Sequence record: DRR378314_1245
Direction: 5' to 3' (one strand)
Length of the DNA: 57,674 nt
The notes beneath the pieces are model-generated. The model was not told the DNA's origin. It saw only the letters and a list, made by a program, of their open reading frames with translations, and did not search any database. Position numbers and translations under genes: made by a program. The first letter of the stretch is position 1. Each line of letters begins with the position of its first letter. This document shows, piece by piece, positions 38,176 to 56,408 of the stretch.

Positions 38176-38613
38176 GGCTAGTTCCTATTTGTGAGCGTTT
38201 AAGATTTTGGCCCAAGTTGCTATTGGACTTTTAATTTTGGTTGTAATGTTTTTATCAATAATACCATGGGTCCTTCTATACGCTATGTTGTTCGTTAAAG
38301 AAGGGCTATTGGGCTTGCTGATTCCTTATTCATCTTATTAATGCAATAATATTAACTCATTTCAATCAATAAAACCAATTAAATATTAGTTTGGGTTAAT
38401 ATATAATGTACAATAAGTAAAATATATTATATGGCTATTGTAAAGTGTTCTTCTTTTATGGAGAGGATTGGGAAATTATAGGAATTTGGGCTCCTATTTG
38501 CAGCTAACGTTTTGAATCCCATTGTTGTTTGCAGGCGGTATTATTTGCTTTTAAATTCTCTGAAAGAGAATCTATTTCTTAGGTCAAAACCTTTTATGGG
38601 AAAATGGCCTAGT

Positions 38614-38657
38614 GTAACAAAAGTTGCTGTGGACATTAAATGCCTGGCCTATCTTTA
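38614..38657 (+). promoter_or_regulatory. GTAAC-N4-GTTGC box plus -7-like box (rhodanese unit)
   Basis: GTAAC-AAAA-GTTGC-TGTG at 38614-38631; TATCTTTA at 38650-38657. Confidence 0.75.
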
Positions 38658-38688
38658 CACTATAAATAAATGTTTTGGTTGGTTGTAT

Positions 38689-38728
38689 AAGGAAACGGTC
38701 ATTGTAAAAGGTGACGGTTTCCTTTTTT
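38689..38728 (+). terminator. Intrinsic terminator in the leader upstream of rhodanese
   Basis: AAGGAAAC-G-GTCATT / GTAAAA / GGTGAC-G-GTTTCC followed by TTTTTT. Confidence 0.7.
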
Positions 38729-38765
38729 AAACAAGTAATTCAGATTAACGCAAAAAAGAAATAAT

Positions 38766-39110
38766 ATGTCTATTTTTAGTACACTTTTCGGAACAAGCAA
38801 AGAGAAATCGGATAAAATTGAAATATTGAATCAGGCCGACTTTTCAGCCGCCATAGCGGGTAAAAAAGTACAACTTATAGATGTTCGTACGCCTAATGAA
38901 TATGGTGGTGGTCATATAAAAAATGCTGTAAATGTTGACTTTTTCAATGCCACAGGCTTTGAAAGATATTGTGAAAAATTGGCCAAGGATAAGCCTGTGT
39001 ATCTGTATTGTCGTTCTGGTGCAAGGAGTCAGAGAGCGGCGCATAAATTGATAGGTATGGGATTTGAAAAAGTAATTGACCTGAGGGGTGGCTACATGTC
39101 ATGGAGATAA
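38766..39110 (+). CDS. Single-domain rhodanese (sulfurtransferase)
   Basis: LIDVRTPNEY, GHIKNA, active-site YCRSGARS, LRGGY. Confidence 0.93.
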   Translation: MSIFSTLFGTSKEKSDKIEILNQADFSAAIAGKKVQLIDVRTPNEYGGGHIKNAVNVDFFNATGFERYCEKLAKDKPVYLYCRSGARSQRAAHKLIGMGFEKVIDLRGGYMSWR

Positions 39111-39152
39111 TATCCTTGCCAACAAGAGTTTATAAATTTGGCTTTTAACATT

Positions 39153-39425
39153 ATGAAATTAGCGCTCAGTGTTCAAAATATAAAATGTGGGGGTTGCGCT
39201 AAAACAATTACCACAAAATTATCGGAATTGGAGAATATCTCGGAGATTATGGTTGATGTAAACTCGGGAACGGTATCTTTTGAATCGAACAACGTTACGG
39301 CCACACAAAGGTTAAGGGATACCCTTAAAGCTTTGGGCTATCCTACAGTGGATGCCAAAAATGGCTTGGGAGATAAGGCCAAATCCTTTCTTAGCTGTGC
39401 TTCGGGAAGGATGATGAAGGAATAA
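39153..39425 (+). CDS. Heavy-metal-associated (HMA, CopZ-like) domain protein
   Basis: VQNIKCGGCAKTI, LGYP, C-terminal KAKSFLSCASGR; ATG 39153. Confidence 0.85.
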   Translation: MKLALSVQNIKCGGCAKTITTKLSELENISEIMVDVNSGTVSFESNNVTATQRLRDTLKALGYPTVDAKNGLGDKAKSFLSCASGRMMKE

Positions 39426-39446
39426 ATCCAAAAAAAAATTAGCTTT

Positions 39447-40475
39447 ATGAAATATCTATCTTTCTTGACAATCCTTCTAATCACCCTGGTTGGCTGTAAG
39501 GAGGCTAAAAAAACGGAATCTATACCTGTGGAAACGATGGTAGAAAACTCATCGGCTGATCAAGCAAAGATACATCCAGGTAAAAAGATTATTGAGACAG
39601 AGTGCTATTTATGTCACAATCCTAAAGCATCAGAGGTAAGCATGATTGCGCCTCCTATGGTCGCTATTAAAAAGCACTATATCGATTCAACAACTACCAA
39701 GAAACAATTTACAAAAGCTATTGTAGGTTGGATCAATGATCCACAAGAAGAGAAATCCAAAATGCCGGGTGCCATAAATCGATTTGGGATAATGCCTTAT
39801 CAACCCTATCCCGAAGAAACCATAAGTCTTATTGCCGAATATATGTACGACTATGAAATTGCACAACCTGAATGGTTCGATGAACATTTTCAGAGGGAGC
39901 ATGGTAGAAGAATGGGTAAAGGAAAGGGAATGGGTAAAGGTATGGGAAATGGAATGGGCCCAGGTTCCAAACATAGAGTACAAACGGATTATGGGGATAT
40001 AGGTCTGGGTTATGCCTTGGCTACAAAGGCAGCACTGGGGAAAAACCTAATGAAGGCCATACAGGAAAAAGGTACGGATGGAGCGGTAGAATTTTGTAAC
40101 CTCAGGGCTATAGAATTAACAGATAGTATTTCTGTGATGAACAATGCACAGATAAAAAGGGTATCCGATAAGCCAAGAAATCCAGGTAATAAGGCCAACA
40201 AGGAAGAACTGGGATATATCGCTACTTTTAAAGAGCAGGTCGCCGCGGGTATCGAAGTAGATCCCGTAGTAGTTCCTGGTAATGAAGAAGTAACGGTATA
40301 TTATCCTATAACTACAAACGCCATGTGCCTCCAATGCCATGGGAAACCCAACGAACAGGTCAAGCCTTCTACGCTGGCCACTCTAAGAAAATTATACCCG
40401 GAAGATAAGGCCGTTGGCTATAATGTAAATGAGGTCCGTGGAATATGGAGCGTGGTTTTTGATAAAAATAAGTAG
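39447..40475 (+). CDS. Di-heme cytochrome c lipoprotein with DUF3365 (Tll0287-like) domain
   Basis: Lipobox LVGC; CYLCH and CLQCH heme motifs; AVEFCN, RVSDKPRNPGN, EVRGIWSV. Confidence 0.85.
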   Translation: MKYLSFLTILLITLVGCKEAKKTESIPVETMVENSSADQAKIHPGKKIIETECYLCHNPKASEVSMIAPPMVAIKKHYIDSTTTKKQFTKAIVGWINDPQEEKSKMPGAINRFGIMPYQPYPEETISLIAEYMYDYEIAQPEWFDEHFQREHGRRMGKGKGMGKGMGNGMGPGSKHRVQTDYGDIGLGYALATKAALGKNLMKAIQEKGTDGAVEFCNLRAIELTDSISVMNNAQIKRVSDKPRNPGNKANKEELGYIATFKEQVAAGIEVDPVVVPGNEEVTVYYPITTNAMCLQCHGKPNEQVKPSTLATLRKLYPEDKAVGYNVNEVRGIWSVVFDKNK

Positions 40476-40717
40476 ATGTTTTTTTTGGCCTTATATAGGT
40501 TGAAAGTCCTTATTGCCTTGAGAAGAAAATATACCTAATATCGATATCGGGTGTAGTGATATTTAGGAAGGAATAAGGATTTTAGAGCCTTTAATGTTTA
40601 GAGTTTGTTACTTATATACCCCACTCAATACTGCCAAAGTGTACTTTATAAATGCCTGAAAATAAGCGAAATAACAAAAAAATATTGTCGGAGTCCTTTT
40701 GGAATTAAAAAAATTTG

Positions 40718-40753
40718 TAAATTTGTTAACCAACTGGTTAAACCGTTTAGTTA
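40718..40753 (+). promoter_or_regulatory. -7 box and probable TetR operator
   Basis: TAAATTTG (40718-40725), then near-palindrome TTAACCAACTGGTTAA (40726-40741) and degenerate copy AACCGTTTAGTTA abutting the ATG. Confidence 0.7.
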
Positions 40754-41356
40754 ATGAAAGATCAGAGCACAGAAGAAAATGTACTAAAGGCAGCCGTAAG
40801 CGTCTTCCAAAAGAAAGGTATGGCAGGAGCCCGTATGCAGGAGATTGCGGATGAGGCAAAAATTAACAAGGCCATGCTGCACTACTATTACAAGAGTAAG
40901 CAAAAATTGTTCGAGGCGGTATTTAGGCAGGCCTTTGAAAAGTTTGCTCCCCATATCAACCAGGTCTTTAATTCCGATAAAAGCGTTTTTGAAAAAATAA
41001 CTGAATTTACAGATAGCTATATTTCCTTTGTTATGGAGAATCCATACCTGCCCAACTTTCTTATTCAGGAAATAAATAACAATCCCGAGTTTGCGGATTT
41101 ATTTTTTGGCTCTGAGATTGCGCCCAACCCTTTGCCTTTTAAGAAACAGATAGCGGAGGAAATAGAGATGGGAATTATAAAACCAATAGACCCTAGACAA
41201 TTGTTGTTAAACCTATTTTCCTTGACGGCATTTTCCTTTGTTGGGACCGGCCTGGTCCGAGGAATATTGAACTTGGACGAAAAAACATTTAAAGCCATGA
41301 TGGAGGAACGCAAAATTTTGATTCCAGAGCTTTTAATTAATTCGATTAAAAAATAA
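40754..41356 (+). CDS. TetR/AcrR family transcriptional regulator
   Basis: KGMAGARMQEIADEAKINKAMLHYYYKSKQKLF HTH. Confidence 0.95.
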   Translation: MKDQSTEENVLKAAVSVFQKKGMAGARMQEIADEAKINKAMLHYYYKSKQKLFEAVFRQAFEKFAPHINQVFNSDKSVFEKITEFTDSYISFVMENPYLPNFLIQEINNNPEFADLFFGSEIAPNPLPFKKQIAEEIEMGIIKPIDPRQLLLNLFSLTAFSFVGTGLVRGILNLDEKTFKAMMEERKILIPELLINSIKK

Positions 41357-41469
41357 AACATTCATGCTTAGTTTAAAACACACTGGGAAAGTAATTATTT
41401 GGATGTTGCACCCGCCAGAATGACTTTGTCGGCCTAGTGCTCCCACTGAAAATCAATAAATAAAAACAC

Positions 41470-42735
41470 ATGAAAAGACTTTTTTTAATATTAATTTTCA
41501 CTATACCTCTTGGCTCCGTGGCCCAGCAGACCCTAAGGTTGGAGGAGTGTTTTGACCTTGTTGCCGAGAATTATCCCTTGGCCAAACAAACCGGATTATT
41601 GGAAAGCCAGGTACAAATGGATATTGAAGCCTTAAGAACGGGCTATTTACCCAAACTGGACCTCAACGCTCAGGCCACCTACCAGTCCGATGTTACAAGT
41701 TTGCCGATCCAGATACCGAATGTAACGGTAGAACCTCCCAATAAGGACCAATATCGCGCCACCTTGGATGTAAACCAAATGATTTATAACGGGGGGTTGA
41801 TCAATGCTTCAACCAAGGTGAAGGAGGCAGCCTCAAAGGTAAACCAACAGCAGTTGGAGGTGAGCCTCTACGGATTAAAAAGCCAGGTCAATTCCATTTA
41901 CTTATCAGTTTTATTGCTTCAGGAAAACCAGGCATTGCTCCAAGCCAAGGAAGAGCAATTAAAGGCACGTTTGGAAGATGTTAAGGCTGGGGTAAAATAT
42001 GGGACTTTGTTGGGGTCTTCTGAAAAAACACTGGAAGCGGAACTCCTAAAATTAAGACAACAGTTTACGGAGTTGAGGTACAATAAATTGGAGTTGGTAC
42101 AACGCTTGTCCTTACTTATTGGCATGGAATTATCGTCCAATGTAAACCTTGAAAGACCTGCCGTTTTTATGTCGGAAACCCAATCCGAGCGACCAGAAAT
42201 TCAGCTTTTCGACCTTCAAAAGGAACAGATAGATTTTTCCTCCAAACTAATTTCAAAGACCAATCTCCCAAAAATCAATGCTTTTGCCCAAGGGGGTTAT
42301 GGCAATCCGGGGCTGAATATGTTGGACAATTCTTTTAAAACCTTCTACATGGCGGGTTTAAAACTGAATCTGAACATTTTTGACTGGAACAAGACCAGGA
42401 CCGAGCAAGAGTCCCTTGAAATAAACAAGCAAATTATAGATACCCAAAAAGAGACCTTTGAACTGAACAACAATTTGGAATTGGTAAAACTCGAGTCTGA
42501 AATTGATAAGATCGATGCCTTGATTTTCACCGATAGGGAGATTATAGTACTACGGGAAGATATTCTAAAAACAGCGGAATCCCAATTGAACAACGGTGTA
42601 ATTACAGCATCGGCCTATATTACCGAATTCACAAATTTATATGAGGCAAAAAGCAATCTAAATCTACACGAAACACAATTGCTATTGCACAAAATTCAAT
42701 ATGAAATTACCAAAGGCAGCTATTACAATAACTGA
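41470..42735 (+). CDS. TolC family outer membrane efflux protein
   Basis: YLPKLDLNAQATYQS, LPKINAFAQGGYG, NIFDW; operon context. Confidence 0.88.
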   Translation: MKRLFLILIFTIPLGSVAQQTLRLEECFDLVAENYPLAKQTGLLESQVQMDIEALRTGYLPKLDLNAQATYQSDVTSLPIQIPNVTVEPPNKDQYRATLDVNQMIYNGGLINASTKVKEAASKVNQQQLEVSLYGLKSQVNSIYLSVLLLQENQALLQAKEEQLKARLEDVKAGVKYGTLLGSSEKTLEAELLKLRQQFTELRYNKLELVQRLSLLIGMELSSNVNLERPAVFMSETQSERPEIQLFDLQKEQIDFSSKLISKTNLPKINAFAQGGYGNPGLNMLDNSFKTFYMAGLKLNLNIFDWNKTRTEQESLEINKQIIDTQKETFELNNNLELVKLESEIDKIDALIFTDREIIVLREDILKTAESQLNNGVITASAYITEFTNLYEAKSNLNLHETQLLLHKIQYEITKGSYYNN

Positions 42736-42757
42736 TATATAACAATACCTGAATAAA

Positions 42758-43660
42758 ATGAAACATCCATATTTAATATTAATAAGTCTTCTAATGAGCA
42801 TTTTAGGTTCTTGTACCGGCAATGGGGATAAGGCCGATGGTTACGGTAATTTTGAAGCTACGGAAATAACTATTTCGGCAGAGGCCAATGGAAAAATTTT
42901 GTTCCTGGATGCGGAAGAAGGAAATGTACTGGCCCAAAATGAGGTTGTTGGCGTTATAGACACCGTTCAGCTTTCCTTAAAGCGCGACCAATTATTGGCT
43001 TCCAAAAACACTATTTTTTCGAAATCCAGAAACGTGCTATCACAAAGGGAAGTACTTAAAGAGCAATTAAAAGTGGCTCAAAATGATAAGGCCAGGGTAG
43101 AGAACCTATTGCAGGCAAAAGCTGCAACTGCCAAACAATTGGACGACATTAATGGACAGATCAACATTATCAAAGAACAGATTAAGAGTGTGGAAACTCA
43201 AAATTCGCCCATTATCAATGAGATAAAAAGTATAGAAATACAAATACGGCAAATTGAAGACCAGATCAATAAAAGTGTCATTCAAAACCCTGTGAAGGGC
43301 ACGGTCCTGGTTAAATATGCTGAACCCAATGAAATTACTGCATTTGGAAAACCCCTATATAAAATAGCCAATCTGGAAGACATGATTCTAAGAGTCTATA
43401 TCAGTGAAAATCAATTGTCCACACTGAAAATTGGACAAGAAGTAAGCGTAAAAATTGATGCAGGCCAGGAAATGAAATCTTATCCTGGCGTGGTGTCTTG
43501 GATTGCGGAAAGTGCAGAATTCACTCCTAAAATTATTCAAACCAAAGAAGAACGTGTCAATCTGGTCTACGCAGTTAAAGTTAAAGTCCGTAATGATGGA
43601 AGTTTAAAAATTGGGATGCCTGCAGAAATGTGGATTGCCACAAAAACTAATGAAGAATGA
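42758..43660 (+). CDS. HlyD/YbhG-like membrane fusion protein
   Basis: GNFEATEITISAEANG, AEFTPKIIQTKEER, LKIGMPAE. Confidence 0.92.
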   Translation: MKHPYLILISLLMSILGSCTGNGDKADGYGNFEATEITISAEANGKILFLDAEEGNVLAQNEVVGVIDTVQLSLKRDQLLASKNTIFSKSRNVLSQREVLKEQLKVAQNDKARVENLLQAKAATAKQLDDINGQINIIKEQIKSVETQNSPIINEIKSIEIQIRQIEDQINKSVIQNPVKGTVLVKYAEPNEITAFGKPLYKIANLEDMILRVYISENQLSTLKIGQEVSVKIDAGQEMKSYPGVVSWIAESAEFTPKIIQTKEERVNLVYAVKVKVRNDGSLKIGMPAEMWIATKTNEE

Positions 43661-44040
43661 AAACGACCTTGATTATCGCGACCATTCTTGCAATCCTGAT
43701 CGGCACCCTATCCGTAATCTCAGGTTCCATGGTCCTTTTGGGGCTGCGTTCCGTGGATTATTGGGTACTGGATTGGTTGGTGGTCTATAACGTTACCCTT
43801 GGAATTATATCCATTTTGGTGGCCTATCAAATAGGTAAACAACACATTAGGTCTAAATTAATGATAATGACCATCCTGCTTTTGCACTTTTTGGTATTGG
43901 TCTATTTGTACTTTTTTAATGATATGGTAGCTGATGAGAGTATAAAGGCAATGGCCTTTAGGGTAGGCATATGGGTAGCAATACTAATTCTGGCACTTCT
44001 AAATCATACAAAAACATTAAGTAACAAAATAAAATCATGA
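43657..44040 (+). CDS. Hypothetical four-TM membrane protein
   Basis: 127-aa hydrophobic ORF; ATGA overlap with the upstream gene. Confidence 0.75.
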   Translation: MKTTLIIATILAILIGTLSVISGSMVLLGLRSVDYWVLDWLVVYNVTLGIISILVAYQIGKQHIRSKLMIMTILLLHFLVLVYLYFFNDMVADESIKAMAFRVGIWVAILILALLNHTKTLSNKIKS

Positions 44041-44043
44041 GCC

Positions 44044-44109
44044 ATGAAACTAAAAATCACCTTCCTGATAGTGCTATCCTTAGTTTTTATTGAGCGGTTA
44101 AGAAAATGA
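44044..44109 (+). pseudogene. 21-codon ORF, signal-peptide-like remnant
   Basis: MKLKITFLIVLSLVFIERLRK*; its stop overlaps the next ATG (ATGA). Confidence 0.4.
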
Positions 44110-45017
44110 GCATCATTCTAAACAATATCAGCAAATCGTACAACACAGTAAAAGCTGTGGACGATATTTCCTTTGAGGTAAAGCCAGGGGAACTGTTCGG
44201 ACTGATAGGTCCGGACGGCGCAGGAAAGACCACCCTTTTCCGAATCCTGACCACCTTACTGATTCAGGATAAGGGAAATGCTACGGTTGCCGGATATGAT
44301 GTTCTAAAGCAGTACAAGGATATCAGAAATCACGTGGGCTATATGCCGGGGAGGTTTTCCTTGTACCAAGATCTTACGGTGGAAGAAAATCTTAAATTTT
44401 TCGCAACTATTTTTGGAACTACAATAGCGGAGAACTATGATTTGATCAAGGATATTTATATCCAAATAGAACCATTTAAAGATCGTAGGGCAGGAAAATT
44501 ATCGGGTGGGATGAAACAAAAACTGGCCCTCTGCTGCGCTTTGATCCATAAACCAAAGGTGTTGTTTTTGGATGAGCCTACCACAGGGGTAGATCCAGTT
44601 TCCCGTAAAGAGTTTTGGGAGATGTTAAAACGCTTACAGCAAAAGGACATCACTATTTTGGTATCTACTCCATATATGGATGAAGCTGAACTTTGTGATA
44701 GGATTGCGCTGATCACCAACGGAAAAATATTGCAGATCAACACGCCCCAGGAAATTATCGCATCGTTCCCAAAGAAAATATTTAAGGTACGTAGTGCCAA
44801 TACCTATCAATTAATCGAAGACTTAAGAGTTTACCCAGAAACCCATAGCGCGTATCCCTTTGGAGAATATCTTCATTTTACCCCTAGGTCCGAAGCATTT
44901 GGGCCAATGGATTTAACCAAATATTTGGAGGAAAGACGGCATAAGGAGATTGAGGTTAAAGAGACCGTGGCAACTATTGAGGATACCTTTATGGATTTAT
45001 CTAAAGCAAATGAATAG
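44106..45017 (+). CDS. ABC transporter ATP-binding protein (YbhF N-half-like)
   Basis: GPDGAGKTT, LSGGMKQK, LDEPTTGVDP, STPYMDEA. Confidence 0.93.
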   Translation: MSIILNNISKSYNTVKAVDDISFEVKPGELFGLIGPDGAGKTTLFRILTTLLIQDKGNATVAGYDVLKQYKDIRNHVGYMPGRFSLYQDLTVEENLKFFATIFGTTIAENYDLIKDIYIQIEPFKDRRAGKLSGGMKQKLALCCALIHKPKVLFLDEPTTGVDPVSRKEFWEMLKRLQQKDITILVSTPYMDEAELCDRIALITNGKILQINTPQEIIASFPKKIFKVRSANTYQLIEDLRVYPETHSAYPFGEYLHFTPRSEAFGPMDLTKYLEERRHKEIEVKETVATIEDTFMDLSKANE

Positions 45018-45752
45018 ATGACAGAAGATAATATGATACAGGTCGAGAACCTGACCAAAATGTTCGGGGATTTCACCGCTGTAAATAACATCTCTTTTGA
45101 GGTGGGAAAAGGTGAGGTTTTTGGATTTTTAGGTGCCAATGGGGCCGGAAAGACAACGGCTATGAAAATGTTGATCGGAATTTCTGAACCTACCCACGGT
45201 AATGCCACCGTGGCTGGTTATAACGTCCTTACAGAGGCCGAACAGGTAAAGAAGAATATTGGGTATATGAGCCAACGCTTCTCTCTTTACAATGATTTGA
45301 CCATTAAAGAAAATATTGTCTTTTTTGGGGGTATATATGGCTTGTCATCTGCAGACATTAAAGAAAAGTCACAGGCCATGATCAATGAATTGGGATTGCA
45401 TGATATGGCCGATTCCCTAGTAAGTTCCCTCCCTTTGGGGTGGAAGCAAAAAGTGGCATTTTCAGTTGCAATGCTCCACAATCCAAAAATTATTTTTTTG
45501 GATGAACCCACTGGAGGAGTAGACCCTATTACCAGGCGCCAATTTTGGGAAATGATCTATATGCAGGCCAATAGAGGGGTTACCATTTTTGTAACTACCC
45601 ATTATATGGATGAGGCCGAATATTGTGATCGGGTGTCTATCATGGTAGCCGGAAAGATAGAGGCTTTGGACACGCCAAAGAATCTAAAACGTCAGTTTCA
45701 AGTGGATTCCATGAATCAGGTATTCCTAAAATTGGCAAGGAACATAGAATAA
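45018..45752 (+). CDS. ABC transporter ATP-binding protein (YbhF C-half-like)
   Basis: GANGAGKTT, LPLGWKQK, LDEPTGGVDP, TTHYMDEAE. Confidence 0.93.
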   Translation: MTEDNMIQVENLTKMFGDFTAVNNISFEVGKGEVFGFLGANGAGKTTAMKMLIGISEPTHGNATVAGYNVLTEAEQVKKNIGYMSQRFSLYNDLTIKENIVFFGGIYGLSSADIKEKSQAMINELGLHDMADSLVSSLPLGWKQKVAFSVAMLHNPKIIFLDEPTGGVDPITRRQFWEMIYMQANRGVTIFVTTHYMDEAEYCDRVSIMVAGKIEALDTPKNLKRQFQVDSMNQVFLKLARNIE

Positions 45753-45762
45753 CAAGGGCAAA

Positions 45763-46869: not shown

Positions 46870-46944
46870 AGGTAATTTGGGAGCTAGTTAAAGGTCAATG
46901 AAAATGAATTTCGCATCACGGATTATCAAATTGATAATGTTTTA

Positions 46945-47019
46945 GTCTCCTTGAGCGAAGTCGAGAGGTCCTGGAAAATTACATCTTTAAAATTAGGTCT
47001 GGACTGCGCTCGACCGGAC
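46945..47019. repeat. Inverted REP-like doublet
   Basis: GTCTCCTTGAGCGAAGTCGAGAGG (46945-46968) and the reverse complement of 46996-47019 (GTCCGGTCGAGCGCAGTCCAGACC) share a core. Confidence 0.7.
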
Positions 47020-47070
47020 GACATTACACCAAATAACTCTAGTTTTTAAAAACTAAGTACTAAAAAGTTT

Positions 47071-48192
47071 ATGAACATCATCCGCTATATCATCCAAAAG
47101 GAGTTTAAACAGATCTTTAGAAATAAGGCGATGTTGCCAATTATTTTTGTCTTGCCGTTGATCCAACTGATTATTCTGTCCAACGCCGCCACCTTTGAGG
47201 TGAAAAATATAAAATTTGCCTTTGTTGATAATGATAAAACATCCCTTTCAAGGGAGTTGGTGGAGAAATTTGAAGCTTCTACCTATTTCAATGTGGTATC
47301 CCAATTTCCTTCGGCTAAACAGGCAGGTATGGCAATGCTGGAGGGCAAGGTGGATGTAATTCTAGAGATTCCTTCTCATTTTGAAAGACAACTTATTAAA
47401 AATGAAAAAGCAGATCTTTCGATTATAATCAATGCTATAGATGGAGCTGCTGCGGGGGTAGAAAATGTGTATATAAATCAAATCGTGCAACAGTTCAATA
47501 AAAAGGCACTGGTAGAATTATCCCTTTTTAACAGGTCGGGGAACCAGCCGCTGAATATTGAAACTATCCCGTCCTTTTGGTACAATGAGACCTTAAATTA
47601 CAAAACCTTTATGGTGCCAGGAATATTGGTCCTTTTGGTAACCATGATTACTCTTTTTCTATCAGGGATGAACATTGTTCGGGAAAAGGAAATAGGTACT
47701 TTGGAACAAATAAACGTTACCCCCATAAAAAAGCACCAGTTTATTATTGGAAAATTATTTCCTTTTTTGGTTTTGGGCATGGTATTGTTGACCGTGGGTC
47801 TGATCATCTCAAAACTGTTGTTTCAGATTCCAATAATCGGAAGTCTAACCTTAATGTATCTCTATACCATTATTTACATTTTAGTGATTTTGGGGATGGG
47901 CCTCTTTATTTCCAATTTTACCGATACCCAGCAGCAGGCCATGTTTATAGCCTGGTTTTTTATGGTCATTTTTATTTTAATGAGCGGTTTGTTCACGCCC
48001 ATCGAAAGTATGCCGCAATGGGCGCAGTTGTTAACTGAATTCAATCCTATTAAATATTATGTTGAGGTAATGAGAATGGTAATGCTAAAAGGGGCCGGCC
48101 TTTCCGATATTTACCCGCAAGTTGTAAAAACCTTCATATTTGCCATTGCTATGAATGTATTGGCGGTAATCAGCTATAAAAAAGTAAGTTAA
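47071..48192 (+). CDS. ABC-2 permease (YbhR-like)
   Basis: KEFKQIFR, REKEIGTLEQ, SGLFTPIESMP. Confidence 0.92.
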   Translation: MNIIRYIIQKEFKQIFRNKAMLPIIFVLPLIQLIILSNAATFEVKNIKFAFVDNDKTSLSRELVEKFEASTYFNVVSQFPSAKQAGMAMLEGKVDVILEIPSHFERQLIKNEKADLSIIINAIDGAAAGVENVYINQIVQQFNKKALVELSLFNRSGNQPLNIETIPSFWYNETLNYKTFMVPGILVLLVTMITLFLSGMNIVREKEIGTLEQINVTPIKKHQFIIGKLFPFLVLGMVLLTVGLIISKLLFQIPIIGSLTLMYLYTIIYILVILGMGLFISNFTDTQQQAMFIAWFFMVIFILMSGLFTPIESMPQWAQLLTEFNPIKYYVEVMRMVMLKGAGLSDIYPQVVKTFIFAIAMNVLAVISYKKVS

Positions 48193-48932
48193 TGGAAAAT
48201 AACCATAACAACAATCATTTACAACCAGAAGAGTCGCGTTTTCTTTCCGGACCGCGCTCCAGGATTAGAGAACTGCTTTTTACCTTTAGGGTACAATACA
48301 GTTTTATCAGGGCATTTAGGAAAATGCACTTTATAGGTCCCTGCGTAACGGTTTTTGGGTCCGCCAGATTTGACAAGACCAATCCTTTTTATAAAAAGGC
48401 AGAACAGGTTGGAGCGGCATTGGCCAATATGGGATTTACGGTGATGACAGGAGGGGGTCCCGGTATTATGGAAGCCGCCAACAAAGGGGCTTATGAAGCG
48501 GGAGGGTATTCTGTAGGCTGCAATATAATTTTGCCCTTTGAACAAAAACCGAACCCCTATCTCCACAAATGGATCAACATTAGATATTTTTTTGTACGAA
48601 AGTTCTTGTTGATCAAATATTCGTATGCCTTTGTGGTTATGCCCGGTGGAATGGGCACCTTGGATGAGCTCTTCGAATCCATTACCTTAATACAAACCAA
48701 GATGATCCAAAATTTTCCCGTGGTCATTTTCGGATCCGAATACCATAAAGAACTTTGTGAACACATAAGGATTATGGCGGAGAATGAAAGTATAAGCCCT
48801 AAGGACATGGCGTTGTTGTTCGTAACCGACTCTGTGGAGGAGATGGCCGAGCACATAAAGACCCATGCTATTGAAAGGTTTAAATTGGTTAAAAAACCTC
48901 AAAGACCTAGTTGGTTGTTTGGGGAAGAATAG
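48192..48932 (+). CDS. LOG family (TIGR00730) Rossmann-fold nucleotide phosphoribohydrolase
   Basis: VTVFGSAR, TGGGPGIMEAANKG, PGGMGTLDE. Confidence 0.92.
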   Translation: MENNHNNNHLQPEESRFLSGPRSRIRELLFTFRVQYSFIRAFRKMHFIGPCVTVFGSARFDKTNPFYKKAEQVGAALANMGFTVMTGGGPGIMEAANKGAYEAGGYSVGCNIILPFEQKPNPYLHKWINIRYFFVRKFLLIKYSYAFVVMPGGMGTLDELFESITLIQTKMIQNFPVVIFGSEYHKELCEHIRIMAENESISPKDMALLFVTDSVEEMAEHIKTHAIERFKLVKKPQRPSWLFGEE

Positions 48933-49073
48933 GCGTTGTTGGGATTGCTCTCAATAAATGATTTATTATATATGGCCATAGGTCCTTCCCTAAGGGCTCC
49001 TTTCCTTGCTTCCAGACAATAGACATAACTGTAGAAACATGCTTAATTGGTATCTGTACGGTTATGCTTTTAA

Positions 49074-49087
49074 TTGACTTTTGTCAA
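49074..49087. promoter_or_regulatory. FNR-type palindrome TTGAC-TTTT-GTCAA upstream of sqr
   Basis: Perfect TTGAC-N4-GTCAA. Confidence 0.5.
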
Positions 49088-49121
49088 AATCCATTATTAG
49101 AAATGGATTGATAATTTCTCT

Positions 49122-49165
49122 GTAACAAATGTTGCTGTGTAATTGACTTTAAAGTCTCAAATTTA
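49122..49165 (+). promoter_or_regulatory. GTAAC-N4-GTTGC box plus -7-like box (sqr unit)
   Basis: GTAAC-AAAT-GTTGC-TGTG at 49122-49139; CAAATTTA at 49158-49165. Confidence 0.72.
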
Positions 49166-49253
49166 TATTCGCAATAATATTTAATGTGCTGATAACGATC
49201 ATGTTAAGTGTTTGGGCGTAGCATTAAATTTATCTTTAATAAATCCAATCGCA

Positions 49254-50711
49254 ATGTCAAAAATAGTCATTTTGGGTGCTGGAATCTCTGGTCATGTGGC
49301 CGCAGCGCACCTTCGTAGAAAACTCCCCAAAGAACACGAAGTATTAGTGGTCTCCCCCAATAGCAATTACCAATGGATCCCTTCCAATATTTGGATAGGA
49401 ATTGGAAGAATGGAACCAAAGGACATTATTTTTCCTTTGGCCCCACTTTACAAAAAGAAAAAAATAGGATATAAACAGGCAAAGGTGGTCACTTTTCACC
49501 CCGAAGGGGATAAGGATGTGGAAAAACCTTTTGTTATGGTGGAATATGTAACGGAGGACCAAAAAGGGAAACAGGAAAAAGTTACCTACGATTATTTGAT
49601 CAATGCAACTGGTCCCAAATTGGCCTTTGATATGACGGAGGGTCTGATACCTGGAACCAACAAGGCCTATTCTGTTTGCACCTACCATCACGCCAACGAG
49701 GCATGGAAAGCCCTTGACGATTTAATACAACAGATGAAGCAGGGTAAAAAAGCCAAAATTTTGATAGGTACCGGTCACGCCAAGTCTACCTGTCAAGGTG
49801 CGGCCTTTGAGTACATTTTAAATGTAGAACAGGAATTAAGGCGGCATAAGGTTCGTGACATGGCGGAATTGGTCTGGATTGCCAATGAGCCTCAACTGGG
49901 AGATTTTGGAATGGATGGGATGCTTTTGAGCTATGGCAACAACATAATGAAGTCGAGCGAAATGGTAGAAATGGTTTTTGAAGATCGTGGTATAAAATGG
50001 ATTATTGGTGCCGGGGTTAATAAAATTGAAGATGGGGTGGCACATTATGAAACCTTGGATGGCGAATACCATAAGGAAACTTATGATTTTGCCATGCTTA
50101 TACCCGCTTTTTCGGGTCATGGCTTTAAGGCCTTTGACAAGAACGACCAAGATATTACGGAAAAATTGTTTAAAGGTTTTATGATCGTGGATGCCGACTA
50201 TACCCCTAAGCCTTATGAGGAATGGTCCGTTCAGGATTGGCCGGAAACCTATCAGAATCCTTCCTACCCCAATATCTTTGCCCCGGGCATAGCCTTCGCT
50301 CCCCCGCATGCCATCTCCAAACCCAGAGTAAGTAAAAATGGTACGGCTATTTCCCCGTCGCCACCAAGAACAGGTATGCCATCTGGAATAACAGCGAAGT
50401 TGGTCGCAGAAAATATAATTGATACCATTAAGAATGGCAAGACCTCTCTGCACCACCGGGGATCCATGGGCAACATGGGTGCCGCATGTATAGCCTCTGC
50501 TGGTTATGGTATGACCAAGGGCAGCGGAATAAGTATAACCACTTTTCCCATAGTCCCGGATTATAATAAGTATCCCGATACCCAAGGACGGCAATTGGGG
50601 AAAACCTTCGGAGAAATTGGTTTGGCGGGCCATTGGCTTAAGTTGGCCCTGCACTATGCCTTTCTATATAAGGCCAAAATGAAACCTTTTTGGTGGTTGA
50701 TTCCCGAATAA
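49254..50711 (+). CDS. sqr: Sulfide:quinone oxidoreductase (SQR)-like flavoprotein
   Basis: GAGISG FAD motif, WIPSNIW, YSVCT, TCQGAAFE, PPRTG, AACIASAG, C-terminal GHWLK...FLYK; start ATG 49254. Confidence 0.85.
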   Translation: MSKIVILGAGISGHVAAAHLRRKLPKEHEVLVVSPNSNYQWIPSNIWIGIGRMEPKDIIFPLAPLYKKKKIGYKQAKVVTFHPEGDKDVEKPFVMVEYVTEDQKGKQEKVTYDYLINATGPKLAFDMTEGLIPGTNKAYSVCTYHHANEAWKALDDLIQQMKQGKKAKILIGTGHAKSTCQGAAFEYILNVEQELRRHKVRDMAELVWIANEPQLGDFGMDGMLLSYGNNIMKSSEMVEMVFEDRGIKWIIGAGVNKIEDGVAHYETLDGEYHKETYDFAMLIPAFSGHGFKAFDKNDQDITEKLFKGFMIVDADYTPKPYEEWSVQDWPETYQNPSYPNIFAPGIAFAPPHAISKPRVSKNGTAISPSPPRTGMPSGITAKLVAENIIDTIKNGKTSLHHRGSMGNMGAACIASAGYGMTKGSGISITTFPIVPDYNKYPDTQGRQLGKTFGEIGLAGHWLKLALHYAFLYKAKMKPFWWLIPE

Positions 50712-50749
50712 AAGGCAACTTTTAATAACTCAAAATCCAATAACCTAAA

Positions 50750-50896
50750 ATGGAAAACATGACACGAAGAATATCAAAATCCAAGCGCTTTTATATGATG
50801 AACCCTATTATCCAATTTTTTAAATTCATTTGGTTGAGTATAAAAATAATGTTGATCGTTGCGGGTGGTCACGGGGGCACCAGAAAGGCACAATAA
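50750..50896 (+). CDS. Small (48 aa) predicted membrane protein downstream of sqr; not in the ORF track
   Basis: MENMTRRISKSKRFYMMNPIIQFFKFIWLSIKIMLIVAGGHGGTRKAQ*; A-rich context before the ATG, 38 bp after the sqr stop. Confidence 0.7.
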   Translation: MENMTRRISKSKRFYMMNPIIQFFKFIWLSIKIMLIVAGGHGGTRKAQ

Positions 50897-51059
50897 ATTA
50901 TCCCGGACCATAATGAGTTTTGCACGGAGCAGTGAATTGAAATCTAATCTGGGCAAAGGATTATCGTCACCTTGTAATTTATCTTTTCCCTAGTTGAAAT
51001 TTAGAACACCTTCCAAAAAATAATCTAACCTTCCTTTATATTTCAAAGCTGAGGCTTGT

Positions 51060-51077
51060 GTAACTTAAGTAGCTGTA
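51060..51077 (+). promoter_or_regulatory. Degenerate GTAAC-N4-GTAGC box (DUF2202 unit)
   Basis: TGT-GTAAC-TTAA-GTAGC-TGTA. Confidence 0.55.
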
Positions 51078-51127
51078 TATCTGTTTAATATGTTGGATAT
51101 TGCTTATGTAATTCAAATCTATTGGCA

Positions 51128-51757
51128 ATGAAACTTTTTAGACAAATAAGAAGTAATTTATTCATTTTTGGCTTGCCATTACTGTTGGCAGTGTTCTCCT
51201 GTAACAATGATGATTCATCAGTTGCGGATCAGGAGAATACAAACCTCACTAATGATGACAATGCGGCGTTATTGTTTATGTTGGAAGAGGAAAAGTTGGC
51301 AAGGGATACGTATACCTATTTGGGAGATTTATGGAATATCAATCAATTTTCAAATATTAAGAAAAGTGAACAAAGCCATATGAATGCCGTTATTGGCCTT
51401 TTGGACCAATATGATATTTCCTATTCCCTTTTGGCATATGGGGAGTTTAATAACCCGGACATTCAAAAGCTTTATGATCAGTTTATTGATTACGGCAGTG
51501 AAAATAAGGCAAATGCCTTGGAGGTTGGTGCCAACATTGAAGATTTGGACATTGTGGATTTGGCCAAATTCATTGATGCCACGACCAATAGTGCCATGAT
51601 ACAAGTATTTGAAAGCCTACAATGTGGAAGCCGCAACCACCTCAGGAGCTTTGTCAATGCCATTGAACTATTGGGGAATACTTATGAGCCCCAGTATTTA
51701 ACCCAGGAAGACTATACCTTAATAATCAATGATAGCCAGGAACAATGTGGTCCGTAA
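51128..51757 (+). CDS. DUF2202 ferritin-like lipoprotein
   Basis: Lipobox VFSC; EEEKLARDTY, SEQSHM, IEDLDIVDL, GSRNHLRSF. Confidence 0.85.
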   Translation: MKLFRQIRSNLFIFGLPLLLAVFSCNNDDSSVADQENTNLTNDDNAALLFMLEEEKLARDTYTYLGDLWNINQFSNIKKSEQSHMNAVIGLLDQYDISYSLLAYGEFNNPDIQKLYDQFIDYGSENKANALEVGANIEDLDIVDLAKFIDATTNSAMIQVFESLQCGSRNHLRSFVNAIELLGNTYEPQYLTQEDYTLIINDSQEQCGP

Positions 51758-51897
51758 AGGATTTTATTAAACAGACTTTCAAAAGAAGAACTGAATAATT
51801 TGGCCGACCCAATTTTGATCACAGGTCAAATGCCTCAAACATGTTGGCTGTCTTAAACTATATTCCTTGACCATAAATAACTTTAGTTAGGTCTTCC

Positions 51898-51917
51898 TGT
51901 GTAACAATTGTTACACA
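51898..51917. promoter_or_regulatory. Perfect 20-bp palindrome TGTGTAACAATTGTTACACA
   Basis: Perfect-symmetry version of the shared box; extra half-site TGTGTAAC at 51924-51931. Confidence 0.75.
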
Positions 51918-51953
51918 ACAATATGTGTAACTTATTGATTTAAAATATATTGA

Positions 51954-51997
51954 CTGACATATATCATTTTCCGCTCCTATTAAAGAACATACATTTA
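51954..51997 (+). promoter_or_regulatory. FNR-like box plus -7-like box
   Basis: CTGAC-ATAT-ATCAT at 51954-51967; TACATTTA at 51990-51997 (36-bp offset). Confidence 0.5.
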
Positions 51998-52024
51998 AAC
52001 ATATTAATTGATAAAACACAAATC

Positions 52025-52699
52025 ATGAAAAGAATAATTTTTACAATGGTATTTATTGCATTTGGATCAATAATGCTTAATGCACAGGACCAAGACCAAT
52101 TACGGGATAGGGACCAAGATCGATTAATGTTGGTGGATGGTGATGTACTACAAATTAGAGATCGAGACCAAATAAGATTACAAGATCCCGTAACATTAAA
52201 TGATGGAACGGTTGTAAATCCTGATGGTTCTTATATAACTAGGGATAAGGATCGTTTACGTCTAAAGGATGGGGAATGTTTGGACAATGATGGTATTAAA
52301 TACCGTAATGAGTACCAATACAGATACAAAGTAAAACAGGAAAACAAAGGTCTTACCGAGGCTCAAATGCAGGAACGTAACCAAAATAGGTTTCAGATTA
52401 TGCAAATAGGTGGTGAAGTATATCAAATTAGAAATCAAGAACAAAAACGTCTTCAGCAGCAATTAAACCTCGGCGACGGAATATTGGTCAATCCTGATGG
52501 AACCTACCAAAGCCAAGACCGCAAACAGCTTAAATTGCAAGATGGAGAATGTTTAAATATGGATGGTACCATGTATAAGAATTCATATCTACATCGTAAA
52601 ATGATGGTTCAAAAAAACATGAAAGTAAACAAAAACATGAAGATGAAAAGCAGAGTTAAGAAGTCAACGACTATGAAAAAGAATAAAGGCAACAATTAA
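52025..52699 (+). CDS. Secreted protein with two DUF6799-like repeats
   Basis: Signal peptide from ATG 52025; two ~57-aa repeats (L.DG..VNPDG.Y...L.L.DGECL..DG). Confidence 0.75.
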   Translation: MKRIIFTMVFIAFGSIMLNAQDQDQLRDRDQDRLMLVDGDVLQIRDRDQIRLQDPVTLNDGTVVNPDGSYITRDKDRLRLKDGECLDNDGIKYRNEYQYRYKVKQENKGLTEAQMQERNQNRFQIMQIGGEVYQIRNQEQKRLQQQLNLGDGILVNPDGTYQSQDRKQLKLQDGECLNMDGTMYKNSYLHRKMMVQKNMKVNKNMKMKSRVKKSTTMKKNKGNN

Positions 52700-52707
52700 G
52701 AAATACC

Positions 52708-52745
52708 AATGGGATGTAGGAATTTTTAAATTCCTACATCCCATT
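52708..52745 (+). terminator. Long perfect hairpin (terminator or RNA-stability element)
   Basis: AATGGGATGTAGGAATTT-TT-AAATTCCTACATCCCATT, 18-bp perfect inverted repeat. Confidence 0.7.
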
Positions 52746-52773
52746 TCCAATAAAGAACATAAACTTATATCTA

Positions 52774-53676
52774 ATGAAATCCCGGCTAATTATATCTTCA
52801 TTAATATTTTTTGCTCTTAATACCGGGGTGATGTCCCAAAATAATAAAAAATCTGTCCAAGAAAAATCCAATGACAATGAATCTTACGTTCTAACCGATG
52901 TAAGCTACATAAATGATGCTGTGTTTATGGGAAGGCGGGATTCTATTGCAGCCCCATATATTTACCCTTCTATTGGCTATTACGATAAGACGGGTTTTTT
53001 TGCAGATGCCTCAGTATCGTATTTAACGGCATCCAACGAAAACAGGGTAGATCTTTTTTTAATCAGTTCAGGGTTTATATTTAATGGATCACAGATTAGT
53101 GGAGGAATATCGGGAACCGCTTATTTTTTTAATGAGGACAGTTATAATGTTAGGTCCGAAGTTATTGGCGATATTACCGGAGTTTTAAGTTATGACTTAA
53201 AGTTTCTGGAAATTACACTTTCGGCAAGTACATATTTTAATAAAGAAAGTTCAGTAGATATTTTTACTGGACTAAAATTGGATAGAACCTTTTATACTCT
53301 TGGGAACAAGCTATTGCTAGATCCGGGTATTTCCCTGTATACCGGATCACAATATTTCTATCAGGAATATTATAGTAGCAGTCGTTTAGGCAACAGAAAG
53401 GGAAAAGGAAAGGGGGCTACTGATACAGAACCAACTACCTCCACTGTGGTGGAAATAAAGGAGGCATCAGAGTTTAATCTCTTAAACCTGGAGTTAAGTC
53501 TTCCTGCGCAATTTTATCACAAGCAATTTATTTTTTCTATTACCCCTTCCTTGTCTTTTCCCCAAAGCAGTGCCACTATAAGTACCGAGGATACCATTAT
53601 AAAGGAAGATCTAAAAAATACATTCTATTGGACCATTGGCGTTAGCTATTGGTTTTATACCAAAAAAAGAAACTAA
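52774..53676 (+). CDS. Hypothetical outer-membrane beta-barrel-like protein
   Basis: Signal peptide; alternating aromatic beta-strands; C-terminal FYWTIGVSYWF. Confidence 0.7.
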   Translation: MKSRLIISSLIFFALNTGVMSQNNKKSVQEKSNDNESYVLTDVSYINDAVFMGRRDSIAAPYIYPSIGYYDKTGFFADASVSYLTASNENRVDLFLISSGFIFNGSQISGGISGTAYFFNEDSYNVRSEVIGDITGVLSYDLKFLEITLSASTYFNKESSVDIFTGLKLDRTFYTLGNKLLLDPGISLYTGSQYFYQEYYSSSRLGNRKGKGKGATDTEPTTSTVVEIKEASEFNLLNLELSLPAQFYHKQFIFSITPSLSFPQSSATISTEDTIIKEDLKNTFYWTIGVSYWFYTKKRN

Positions 53677-53707
53677 AATTGGTTATCCCAATGGGATCAA
53701 TTCCTTG

Positions 53708-53751
53708 GTAACATTAGTTACTGTGCAATCCTTTTACTCCCCCTAATTTTG
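53708..53751 (+). promoter_or_regulatory. GTAAC-N4-GTTAC box plus -7 box (TolC-RND unit)
   Basis: GTAAC-ATTA-GTTAC-TGTG at 53708-53725; TAATTTTG at 53744-53751. Confidence 0.8.
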
Positions 53752-53769
53752 TCTTAAATAATTAGAACG

Positions 53770-55074: not shown

Positions 55075-55122
55075 GGGCATACAATTAATCAATATAAGAA
55101 ACTATTTAAAGGAATTATACAT

Positions 55123-56202: not shown

Positions 56203-56233
56203 CCAAAGTTTGAAAAATCGGATTTGCGTTAGG

Positions 56234-56253
56234 CCTGCCTGCCGGTAGGCAGG
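56234..56253. repeat. REP-like palindrome CCTGCCTGCCGGTAGGCAGG
   Basis: Near-perfect 20-bp palindrome; its first 13 nt recur at 1161-1173. Confidence 0.6.
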
Positions 56254-56281
56254 GATTGTAGCGGTTACCCCAAAACTTCTA

Positions 56282-56312: not shown

Positions 56313-56408
56313 CATGAAAAGACTTTCAAAGTAGAAAGTATAAGGATCATTCAAGACAAAGACAAGAATTGGGGAAGGTAACGCCCAAAACAAAAATAAA
56401 AGATAAAG

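Follow-up and report, generated by a model that had tools for sequence, protein, structure and literature searches.

CstR, SqrR/BigR and FisR control sulfide:quinone oxidoreductase (SQR), persulfide dioxygenase (PDO), sulfurtransferases, TauE and thiosulfate importers, and CsoR, ArsR and Fis are the only superfamilies to which the accessible text of a 2026 review assigns reactive-sulfur sensors (PMC13467558). Here we analysed DRR378314_1245, a stretch of 57,674 nucleotides (the window, meaning this stretch at its full length), in which five boxes of the form GTAAC-N4-GTTAC or close to it lie ahead of genes for a rhodanese, an SQR, proteins with DUF2202 and DUF6799 domains and an RND exporter. 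We consider it probable, though well short of secure, that the five boxes are operators of a single Crp/Fnr class II activator of reactive-sulfur detoxification, with sulfane sulfur as the signal acting at its cysteines. The genes controlled by CstR (CsoR), SqrR/BigR/YgaV (ArsR) and FisR (a sigma-54 activator), as listed in the review text (PMC13467558), match the predicted regulon, and in both cases conserved cysteines are the likely sensing site. Unlike these proteins, the regulator reported here belongs to the Crp/Fnr family (Pfam cNMP_binding and HTH_Crp_2), as the initial annotation had foreseen in setting the system apart from BigR/SqrR, CstR and FisR. It would act as a class II sigma-A activator, not as a repressor or a sigma-54 enhancer-binding protein, and it carries its cysteines as C-x5-CC in one loop.

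Our literature search found no report of a Crp/Fnr-type sulfide or persulfide regulator in Flavobacteriaceae, most subscription journals lying outside its coverage. The nearest published hint comes from a preprint of 2017 on Chlorobaculum tepidum (10.1101/172254), whose available text describes a CRP-like motif (CLM), matched by its authors to the PrfA consensus WTAACAWWTGTTAA, upstream of the sulfide-induced psrABC and cydAB, and names the Crp/Fnr protein CT1719 as the candidate for this motif. A Crp-type motif is common to both systems. However, the distance of the CLM sites from the start, 57-58 nt or more upstream, does not match the -41.5 position, and the available text of the preprint describes neither a cysteine triad nor an SQR/PDO/TauE regulon. 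A second precedent concerns the box itself. According to the accessible part of Rodionov et al. (2005), the HcpR2 branch has the consensus GTAACnnnnGTTAC, controls hcp, is linked to a nitrosative-stress signal and occurs in Bacteroides among others (PMC1274295). This consensus is identical to the box studied here, and the box type is not new because it was already published for HcpR2. Of the earlier claim of an undescribed regulon, the regulon and its regulator can thus be kept as new, but not the box consensus.

The boxes and the predicted promoter elements associated with them in the window are as follows.

38614-38627, plus strand: box 1, GTAACAAAAGTTGC, promoter of the rhodanese-HMA-cytochrome c unit; one mismatch to the palindrome
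38650-38657, plus strand: -7 box TATCTTTA, 22 nt past box 1; transcription start predicted near 38662
49122-49135, plus strand: box 2, GTAACAAATGTTGC, sqr promoter
49158-49165, plus strand: weak -7 box CAAATTTA, 22 nt past box 2
51060-51073, plus strand: box 3, GTAACTTAAGTAGC, weak candidate site for the DUF2202 gene; two mismatches, promoter-proximal half degenerate
51898-51917, no strand assigned: box 4, perfect 20-bp palindrome TGTGTAACAATTGTTACACA, core at 51901-51914
53708-53721, no strand assigned: box 5, GTAACATTAGTTAC, perfect palindrome, promoter of the TolC-MFP-RND unit
53744-53751, plus strand: -7 box TAATTTTG (6/6), 22 nt past box 5

Scanning the window with the pattern GTAACNNNNGTWRC, that is GTAAC-N4-GT(T/A)(A/G)C, gave seven strand matches at five sites (38614, 49122, 51060, 51901 and 53708), the boxes at 51901 and 53708 being matched on both strands because they are palindromic. 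Only 0.16 matches were expected from 100 dinucleotide-preserving shuffles of the window, of which none reached seven (maximum 2). All five boxes proposed by the initial annotation were therefore recovered, and its remark that the motif was not seen left of position 38600 held as well, since the scan returned zero matches left of 38614. With the perfect palindrome GTAACNNNNGTTAC and up to one mismatch, the window contained five matches against 1.07 expected. Four of them are boxes named in that annotation; the fifth, at 47638, falls within the coding region of an ABC-2 permease and probably arose by chance. The box at 51060 has two mismatches to GTAACNNNNGTTAC and hence falls outside this list. 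Reading the flanks directly confirmed two further details of the annotation: TGT follows four of the five boxes, the exception being 51901, where the sequence continues with ACA to form the 20-bp palindrome, and the -7-like boxes at 38650, 49158 and 53744 each begin exactly 36 nt from the start of their box. That the five boxes make up one regulon is supported most clearly for the three units at 38614, 49122 and 53708; the box at 51060 is degenerate and weak, and at 51901 the promoter spacing is atypical.

To place the boxes in a genomic context, we used the nearest available genome, G001 (5.7 Mb, 100% complete), which is 91-96% identical to the window over 36-57.7 kb, together with a set of 81 Flavobacteriaceae genomes, a family that spans more than 80 genera. 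The best named relatives of the G001 proteins are from Arenibacter, with 93-94% identity for the regulator, and the window probably originates from this genus. Genome-wide counts did not exceed those of the controls. The loose pattern gave 25 + 23 strand matches (48) in G001, against 69 + 70 (139) for the pattern written backwards, and GTAACWWWWGTTAC occurred at 143 sites in the 81 family genomes, against 129 for its control. Position was therefore used instead of raw counts. The signal is positional: it lies in intergenic location, promoter geometry and gene neighbourhood, not in raw counts. Most instances of the pattern with G+C-rich spacers fall inside genes, and a less biased sample of one GTAACWWWWGTTAC site per genome from 29 genomes showed 24 of 29 sites to be intergenic, with a homolog of the sulfur gene set within 1.5 kb in 19 of the 29 loci.

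Intergenic boxes in G001 were found at four of the five window promoters and at further sulfur and stress genes. These include a metallo-beta-lactamase/rhodanese fusion (PDO-rhodanese, which also shows a weak NCBIfam match to Blh), a SulP permease, a split YeeE/YedE pair, a second DUF6799 gene paired with one for a 300-aa protein, a Dps-type ferritin, cydA and a thioredoxin-like (Thioredoxin_9) protein. Boxes had been predicted upstream of persulfide dioxygenase, YeeE/TSUP and rhodanese genes, and this is what we observed, both in G001 (PDO-rhodanese, YeeE/YedE) and in other genera (TauE, rhodanese). The box of the YeeE pair sits within a 38-bp perfect palindrome with flanks AAAA and TTTT (L037:6591-6628, on G001 contig C94) and could at the same time serve the upstream gene as a bidirectional terminator.

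The equal genome-wide counts, this palindrome between A and T runs and the match at 47638 inside a gene are what would be seen if the boxes were chance palindromes or terminator stems of no regulatory role. We consider such an origin extremely improbable. The boxes are clustered and intergenic, they stand at a fixed distance from -7 boxes, and they are conserved ahead of orthologous genes in many genera while the surrounding sequence differs; moreover, a terminator would need a stronger stem than 5 bp with a 4-nt loop.

The window itself does not encode the regulator (tblastn, best E 0.11). As anticipated, the gene was found elsewhere: G001 encodes a 210-aa Crp/Fnr protein with cNMP_binding and HTH_Crp_2 domains 2-4 kb from the PDO and SulP boxes, so that the expectation of a Crp/Fnr gene close to boxes was also confirmed. 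Orthologs are present in 71 of the 81 family genomes (E <= 1e-20), and a box adjoins the regulator gene in 18 of 30 ortholog loci (within 1.5 kb on either side), usually just past its stop codon and ahead of the next gene. The neighbours behind such boxes encode TauE/SafE, the YeeE/YedE pair or cytochrome c/Tll0287 proteins like that of the window.

A scan of named contigs returned at least 597 relatives of the regulator, from which 80 loci were kept with 6 kb on either side (934,234 bp), including Arenibacter, Zobellia, Maribacter, Sinomicrobium, Psychroserpens, Aequorivita, Christiangramia, Polaribacter, Dokdonia and others. The perfect box GTAAC-N4-GTTAC occurred 124 times in these loci, compared with four occurrences of the backwards pattern and none of the everted halves. 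At least one box was present in 68 of the 80 loci, and 123 of the 124 boxes were intergenic by an open reading frame (ORF) criterion. Within 300 nt downstream of the 124 boxes, the most frequent genes were those for TauE (26), PDO-rhodanese (23) and rhodanese (19), followed by SulP (7), cytochrome c/Tll0287 (6), HMA, YeeE and OEP proteins (3 each), a gene of the 3-keto-disaccharide-hydrolase family divergent from SulP (2) and the regulator itself (2). The remaining 33 sites had no gene from the reference set, and most of them had a -7 box at the canonical spacing. Ten ORFs downstream of such sites were scanned; four encode 1-Cys peroxiredoxins and three encode PsrB/NrfD-like proteins (4Fe-4S plus NrfD, one ORF comprising only the 4Fe-4S part), indicating that the regulon is wider than the window shows. 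A 538-aa fusion of a 4Fe-4S (PsrB-like) and an NrfD (PsrC-like) part was seen behind boxes in several genera, at L144:8917-10533, L153:7798-9414 and L164:7798-9414, and the 1-Cys peroxiredoxins come from four further genera. The order regulator, box, tauE, box, pdo-rhodanese, box, rhodanese-HMA is common among the loci. These units are scattered in Arenibacter, which explains why the window has boxes without the regulator.

A different factor could in principle own the boxes, with the neighbourhood of the three-cysteine gene being incidental. G001 has 19 cNMP-domain proteins, and an HcpR2-type nitrosative-stress regulator would be the obvious candidate, as GTAACnnnnGTTAC is the published HcpR2 consensus and Bacteroides is among the taxa concerned (PMC1274295). 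We regard this as very improbable. The accessible text on HcpR2 describes regulons that mostly contain only hcp, with the regulator co-occurring with hcp, and defines the branch by Pro (or Ser/Gln) at CRP position 181 (PMC1274295), whereas G001 lacks hcp (Prismane, PF03063, the hybrid-cluster protein, 0 matches in this 100% complete genome) and the three-cysteine protein has Val at that position (132/136 homologs). Membership of HcpR2 was rejected on these grounds. An arginine-valine helix of the SRVV[VI]SR type is absent from every other cNMP-domain protein listed for G001, and the 124 boxes around the three-cysteine gene stand against four and zero in the controls.

Promoter geometry was examined in 44 promoters, obtained from 52 box-gene pairs by leaving out four G001 duplicates of window promoters and four pairs upstream of the regulator or the sugar-hydrolase-like gene. 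The element TAnnTTTG (at least five of its six fixed letters) began at one of two distances past the box in 37 of the 44 promoters, 22 nt in 29 of them and 21 nt in eight, with 25 perfect matches; at every other offset from 0 to 59 it was found in at most three of the 44. The sigma-A -7 box of Flavobacterium psychrophilum is placed at -12 to -5 in the available text of a published study (PMC9723704), and a 22-nt gap therefore puts the 14-bp box at -48 to -35, with its centre at -41.5. The predicted centre is -41.5 or -40.5 in 37 of the 44 promoters, a geometry common to several genera that extends the initial proposal of a site centred near -41. The first three nucleotides past the box, where the -33 TTG would lie, read TGT, TGC, CTT and similar, not TTG; a spacing of TTG-N17-23-TANNTTTG is quoted in the available text of 10.1101/172254. 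NtcA-activated promoters carry GTA-N8-TAC at -41.5 (PMC3898017, accessible part). Taken together, the fixed spacing, the missing -33 TTG and the NtcA position suggest that the box-bearing promoters are activator-dependent class II promoters.

A box covering -48 to -35 overlaps the -33 region and could in principle serve a repressor that blocks RNA polymerase until the signal arrives, in the manner of CstR and SqrR; release of repression is how reactive-sulfur sensors of the CsoR and ArsR types work (PMC13467558, accessible text). We consider repression improbable, since a spacing fixed to the base pair is a requirement of face-of-helix contact with polymerase and not of occlusion, the bases at the -33 TTG position are not TTG, and NtcA, the nearest characterised relative by recognition helix, acts as an activator from -41.5 (PMC3898017, accessible part). 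An interpretation of GTAAC as a promoter element of an extracytoplasmic function (ECF) sigma factor was rejected because the box is a palindrome and a sigma-A -7 box stands at a set distance behind it. When a composite model (box with up to two mismatches plus a -7 box at 21 or 22 nt) was run on the window, it recovered 38614, 53708 and the minus-strand reading of 51901. It missed 51060 and sqr, with its weak -7 box, and is therefore too strict for weak promoters.

The G001 regulator matched the cNMP-binding beta-roll PF00027 (E 3.5e-11, 43.3 bits against a cut-off of 27.5) and the Crp-type helix-turn-helix PF13545 (E 6.5e-10, 39.3 bits against 27). Its AlphaFold model (pLDDT 80.6) has the Crp fold with a long dimerisation-type helix at residues 118-145, and the top Foldseek matches were Thermus thermophilus CAP, 3dv8, CRP, NtcA and FNR. 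The nearest solved relatives by PDB sequence search were 3dv8 (E 1.5e-13), NtcA 2xgx (E 1e-9) and CRP (E 1e-8). The best of these, 3dv8, is an uncharacterised Crp/Fnr protein of Eubacterium rectale that ranks third by Foldseek and keeps C77 and C83, but it belongs to a different phylum, has Ile at the position of C84 and carries the helix HREVITR instead of SRVVVSR. Conservation was assessed in 136 homologs (E <= 1e-30), namely the G001 protein and 135 distinct sequences from the family and beyond. The recognition helix S-R-V-V-(I/V)-S-R is almost invariant (R182 in 136/136, V183 in 132/136), and C77, C83 and C84 are present in 135, 133 and 130 homologs, respectively. These are the only cysteines of the G001 protein, none lying in the N-terminal 76 residues. 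They form the motif G-[DE]-T-C-x5-C-C just ahead of the invariant S90, in what we take, from our own alignment with CRP, to be the place of the cNMP phosphate-binding cassette. The residue before S90, which presumably corresponds to R82 of CRP, varies (R, T, K, N, S) among 29 orthologs.

No NCBIfam model covers the regulator: it scores 50 bits against a cut-off of 266 for CRP (NF008732) and 44.8 against 244.95 for NtcA (TIGR03697). CRP membership was rejected on that score and because the phosphate-binding Arg of the cNMP cassette is not conserved. FNR carries its 4Fe-4S cluster on an N-terminal group of cysteines and one central Cys; membership of FNR was likewise rejected, as the protein has three cysteines only, all in the beta-roll, and no N-terminal cysteine cluster. 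The protein is not NtcA either, although it shares with NtcA the fold and the domain order (2xgx; Foldseek), the arginine-valine helix (TRVTVTR in NtcA, SRVVVSR in the regulator) and, as far as the accessible part of PMC3898017 goes, the GTA-N8-TAC target form at -41.5. It differs in its pocket, which has three cysteines where NtcA binds 2-oxoglutarate (according to the title of entry 2xhk), in a predicted regulon devoted to sulfur instead of nitrogen, and in its promoters, which are of the Bacteroidota sigma-A type. Comparative genomics supports the view that the regulator is a Crp/Fnr protein with what would be a new sensory pocket and a new regulon.

At E <= 1e-30 the regulator family comprises at least 7,909 clusters at 90% identity, and the best 120 of these carry generic Crp/Fnr names plus one "Global nitrogen regulator". 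Among 301 sampled genomes of the phylum, 92 had a homolog (E <= 1e-40), including all 23 from the family of the window and 25 of the 49 sampled from a family of another class, whose homologs keep the cysteine motif, the helix and the boxes ahead of yeeE. At the same threshold, none of 63 sampled genomes of the green sulfur bacteria, a family so assigned because the FMO protein is present, had a homolog.

On the basis of these data, we propose the following model. The 210-aa Crp/Fnr protein, encoded outside the window and conserved across Flavobacteriaceae and further Bacteroidota, would bind GTAAC-N4-GTTAC as a dimer through its NtcA-like recognition helix SRVV[VI]SR. At most targets the box at about -41.5 would stand in for the missing -33 element ahead of the sigma-A -7 box TAnnTTTG, and the protein would act as a class II activator. 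The predicted regulon comprises SQR, PDO-rhodanese, rhodanese-HMA-cytochrome c, TauE, YeeE/YedE, SulP, cytochrome bd, thiol peroxidase, thioredoxin and Dps-type protectants, to which Arenibacter would add an RND efflux pump and secreted DUF proteins. The most likely signal is sulfide-derived sulfane sulfur (persulfide or polysulfide), which would be sensed by C77, C83 and C84 at the site of the cNMP cassette; for this part of the model we see a somewhat better than even prospect. Since tauE, pdo-rhodanese and rhodanese are the commonest genes behind the boxes and SQR is accessory (14/81 genomes), the signal may be sulfane sulfur or persulfide from any source and not external sulfide alone. Whether the regulator represents an undescribed class of reactive-sulfur sensor, a Bacteroidota Crp/Fnr class II activator in which Cys-x5-Cys-Cys replaces the cyclic-nucleotide pocket and which serves as master switch of sulfide and persulfide detoxification in marine flavobacteria, appears to us evenly poised. 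Transcription of a short leader or small RNA in front of the rhodanese genes may likewise depend on such a sensor and its box.

In coastal water and sediment, heterotrophic Bacteroidota rank among the main degraders of organic matter and are exposed to sulfide; no account of how they sense it was found in the literature searched. If true, the proposal would bring to the reactive-sulfur sensors a protein scaffold new to them, together with activation from -41.5 as a new mode. The sharp box and the fixed promoter geometry would let sulfur-stress regulons be read from thousands of flavobacterial genomes. The proposal would also give a physiological context to DUF2202, DUF6799, the Tll0287-like cytochrome c and the RND pump, and offer a compact sulfide-responsive promoter-regulator pair for Bacteroidota genetics.

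Besides the genome-wide counts given above, several points weigh against this model. The reference set used for downstream genes was built from genes first met beside boxes and is thus circular for gene identity, though not for the spacing or the control counts. The regulator gene was read in the relative G001 and not in the window itself, and the placement at -41.5 is a prediction that depends on the match to the -7 box. Two of the five window promoters fit poorly: box 3 (51060) has two mismatches and no TAnnTTTG was found 21 or 22 nt after it, and the DUF6799 promoters have their -7-like box, TATCATT, at 26 nt (three genera) or about 47 nt (Arenibacter) instead of 22. With regard to the signal, AlphaFold is least confident precisely at the cysteine loop (pLDDT below 50 for residues 80-87). 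The near-invariant C77 and C83 are candidates for the di- or polysulfide bridge of a dithiol-type persulfide sensor, in a loop that is poorly modelled. The three-cysteine pocket could hold a metal, an Fe-S cluster or haem, and cydA, Dps, peroxiredoxin and thioredoxin suit an oxygen or redox signal too.

These last points lead to the alternative that regulator, boxes and class II activation are as proposed but the signal is another one: the triad would carry Fe-S, haem or a metal and report oxygen, redox state, nitric oxide or metal, or the pocket would bind a small sulfur anion such as sulfite or thiosulfate. Crp/Fnr members that use Fe-S (FNR) or haem (CooA, HcpR of Porphyromonas) are known. 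The low confidence of the loop model leaves room for such a cofactor, and the cydA, Dps and thioredoxin-like genes of the G001 regulon, the 1-Cys peroxiredoxin in four other loci, the di-haem cytochrome c peroxidase gene that adjoins the regulator in G001 and the HMA protein and Met/Gly-rich cytochrome c of the window unit would all be at home in it. We nevertheless rate a different signal as unlikely, if a serious contender. Sulfur-specific genes are the commonest behind the boxes, an FNR-type N-terminal cysteine cluster is missing, and cydA suits a sulfide signal as well because cytochrome bd is a sulfide-resistant oxidase (10.1101/172254, available text).

Two observations on the surroundings of the regulator gene may be added. 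In G001 (L035:8744-11415, contig C160) it lies between an aldose-epimerase-like gene, on the same strand with a 10-nt gap, and the di-haem peroxidase gene; an epimerase-like neighbour was seen in 20 of the 80 loci. A second Crp paralog, with an SRE-type recognition helix and lacking C83 and C84, is encoded near the regulator at L173:7264-7899 and L157:11730-12368, and presumably has a different operator and signal.

The genes and the leader element of the window units, whose gene content as given in the initial annotation agreed with Pfam and PDB comparison, are listed below.

38675-38734, plus strand: leader element between promoter and rhodanese ATG, with conserved TTGGTTGG, a 14-bp hairpin and T6 (terminator-like)
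38766-39110, plus strand: rhodanese (Pfam)
39138-39425, plus strand: HMA-domain protein with CGGC (Pfam)
39447-40475, plus strand: lipoprotein cytochrome c with Tll0287-like domain (Pfam)
49212-50711, plus strand: sulfide:quinone oxidoreductase (Pfam Pyr_redox_2; PDB matches)
51122-51757, plus strand: DUF2202 protein, secreted or with a lipoprotein-like N-terminus (Pfam)
51950-53676, plus strand: DUF6799 repeat protein (Pfam) and a 300-aa protein without a name
53770-55074, plus strand: outer membrane factor, OEP/TolC (Pfam)
55123-56202, plus strand: membrane fusion protein, MFP (Pfam)
56409-57674, plus strand: RND permease, continuing beyond the window end (Pfam)

The membership of the rhodanese-HMA-cytochrome c unit in the regulon across genera is well supported by comparison of loci: rhodanese genes of other genera account for 19 of the 124 perfect-box sites, and homologs of the unit lie behind boxes adjoining the regulator gene. 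The window SQR is closest to the solved enzymes of Aquifex (3hyv, E 9e-34) and Acidithiobacillus (3sz0, E 2e-32). Of the 14 SQR loci in the family genomes, 13 carried a box of no more than one mismatch in the 400 nt ahead of the gene, the 14th a box with two mismatches; several of these promoters share a GTTGC proximal half and a weak -7 box, nAnnTTT(A/G), at 22 nt. Homologs of the outer membrane factor were found behind the same box in at least five other loci from other genera (L086, L101, L155, L176, L185). By NCBIfam the RND permease scores as a multidrug-type rather than a CusA/CzcA-type pump (RND_permease_2, 231 bits; CusA/CzcA, 122 bits), both values being under the cut-off because the protein is truncated.

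DUF6799 occurs in seven of the 81 family genomes, and six of eight loci had an upstream box with at most one mismatch; the paralogous pair of DUF6799 and 300-aa proteins in G001 likewise bears a box. Regulon membership is therefore likely, with an atypical mechanism. The DUF6799 promoters (window 51915-51975; L244, L246, L247 and L249) share a conserved AACTGAC-N4-5-TATCATT after the box, and that of the window contains a lone GTAAC half-site at 51927, 21 nt before TATCATTT. Matches of homologs to the DUF6799 protein begin at residues 3-25, most of them at 19-25, which suggests that its true start is likely near 52025 and followed by a signal peptide. The 300-aa partner looks like an outer-membrane barrel.

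The DUF2202 unit is the weakest of the five. The domain was found in only seven of the 81 genomes, and the G001 copy of box 3 has GTGGC as its proximal half, outside the loose pattern. Two other genera (L196, L198) have a one-mismatch box some 50 nt ahead of the DUF2202 gene. Three DUF2202 loci were without a box, one of them cut by the contig end and one (G020) near the regulator gene. The G020 copy is about 17 kb or less from the regulator ortholog and about 4 kb from a weaker Crp paralog, and the copy in G074 is about 12 kb from the ortholog.

The leader hairpin of the rhodanese unit (38675-38734), a bulged hairpin followed by T6, had an RNAfold energy of -25 kcal/mol (z -4.4; 0 of 200 shuffles as good). 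The TTGGTTGG block lies between the box promoter and the rhodanese gene (window 38662-38740) and is followed, in other genera too, by a hairpin that is strong but unrelated in sequence, with a T-run behind it. Similar leaders were found at the following places.

L158:10700-10815
L187:10690-10805
L173:6694-6775
L180:5948-6035
L144:6644-6850
L147, L148, L151, L159 and L160 (loci only)

In five to six genera there are two boxes about 190 bp apart: the first drives a unit of about 150 nt that consists of the leader alone, and the rhodanese gene is driven from the second. Rfam gave zero matches at the gathering threshold in 38000-57674, and a consensus terminator scan of 38200-38800 found none. The leader may act as an attenuator or give a small RNA controlled by the box. 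For a leader peptide, one can draw tiny ORFs that stop just short of the stem in several genera, but in the window the frame is inconsistent.

Between the rhodanese unit and sqr (40754-48932) lie a TetR gene, an OEP-HlyD pair, genes for two ABC ATPases and two ABC-2 permeases and a LOG-family (Lysine_decarbox) gene; this cluster has no promoter box, its sole motif match being the one inside the permease gene. Short pieces of assembled RNA contigs covered parts of genes in runs X1, X2, X7 and X8 of 15 runs; they showed neither starts nor ends nor expression levels and are neutral with respect to the regulon. Finally, the cytochrome c/Tll0287-like lipoprotein (39447-40475) has a Gly/Met-rich linker, GKGKGMGKGMGNGMGPG, and its gene is downstream of that for the HMA protein with CGGC; linker and CGGC together hint at a link between sulfide stress and soft-metal handling.

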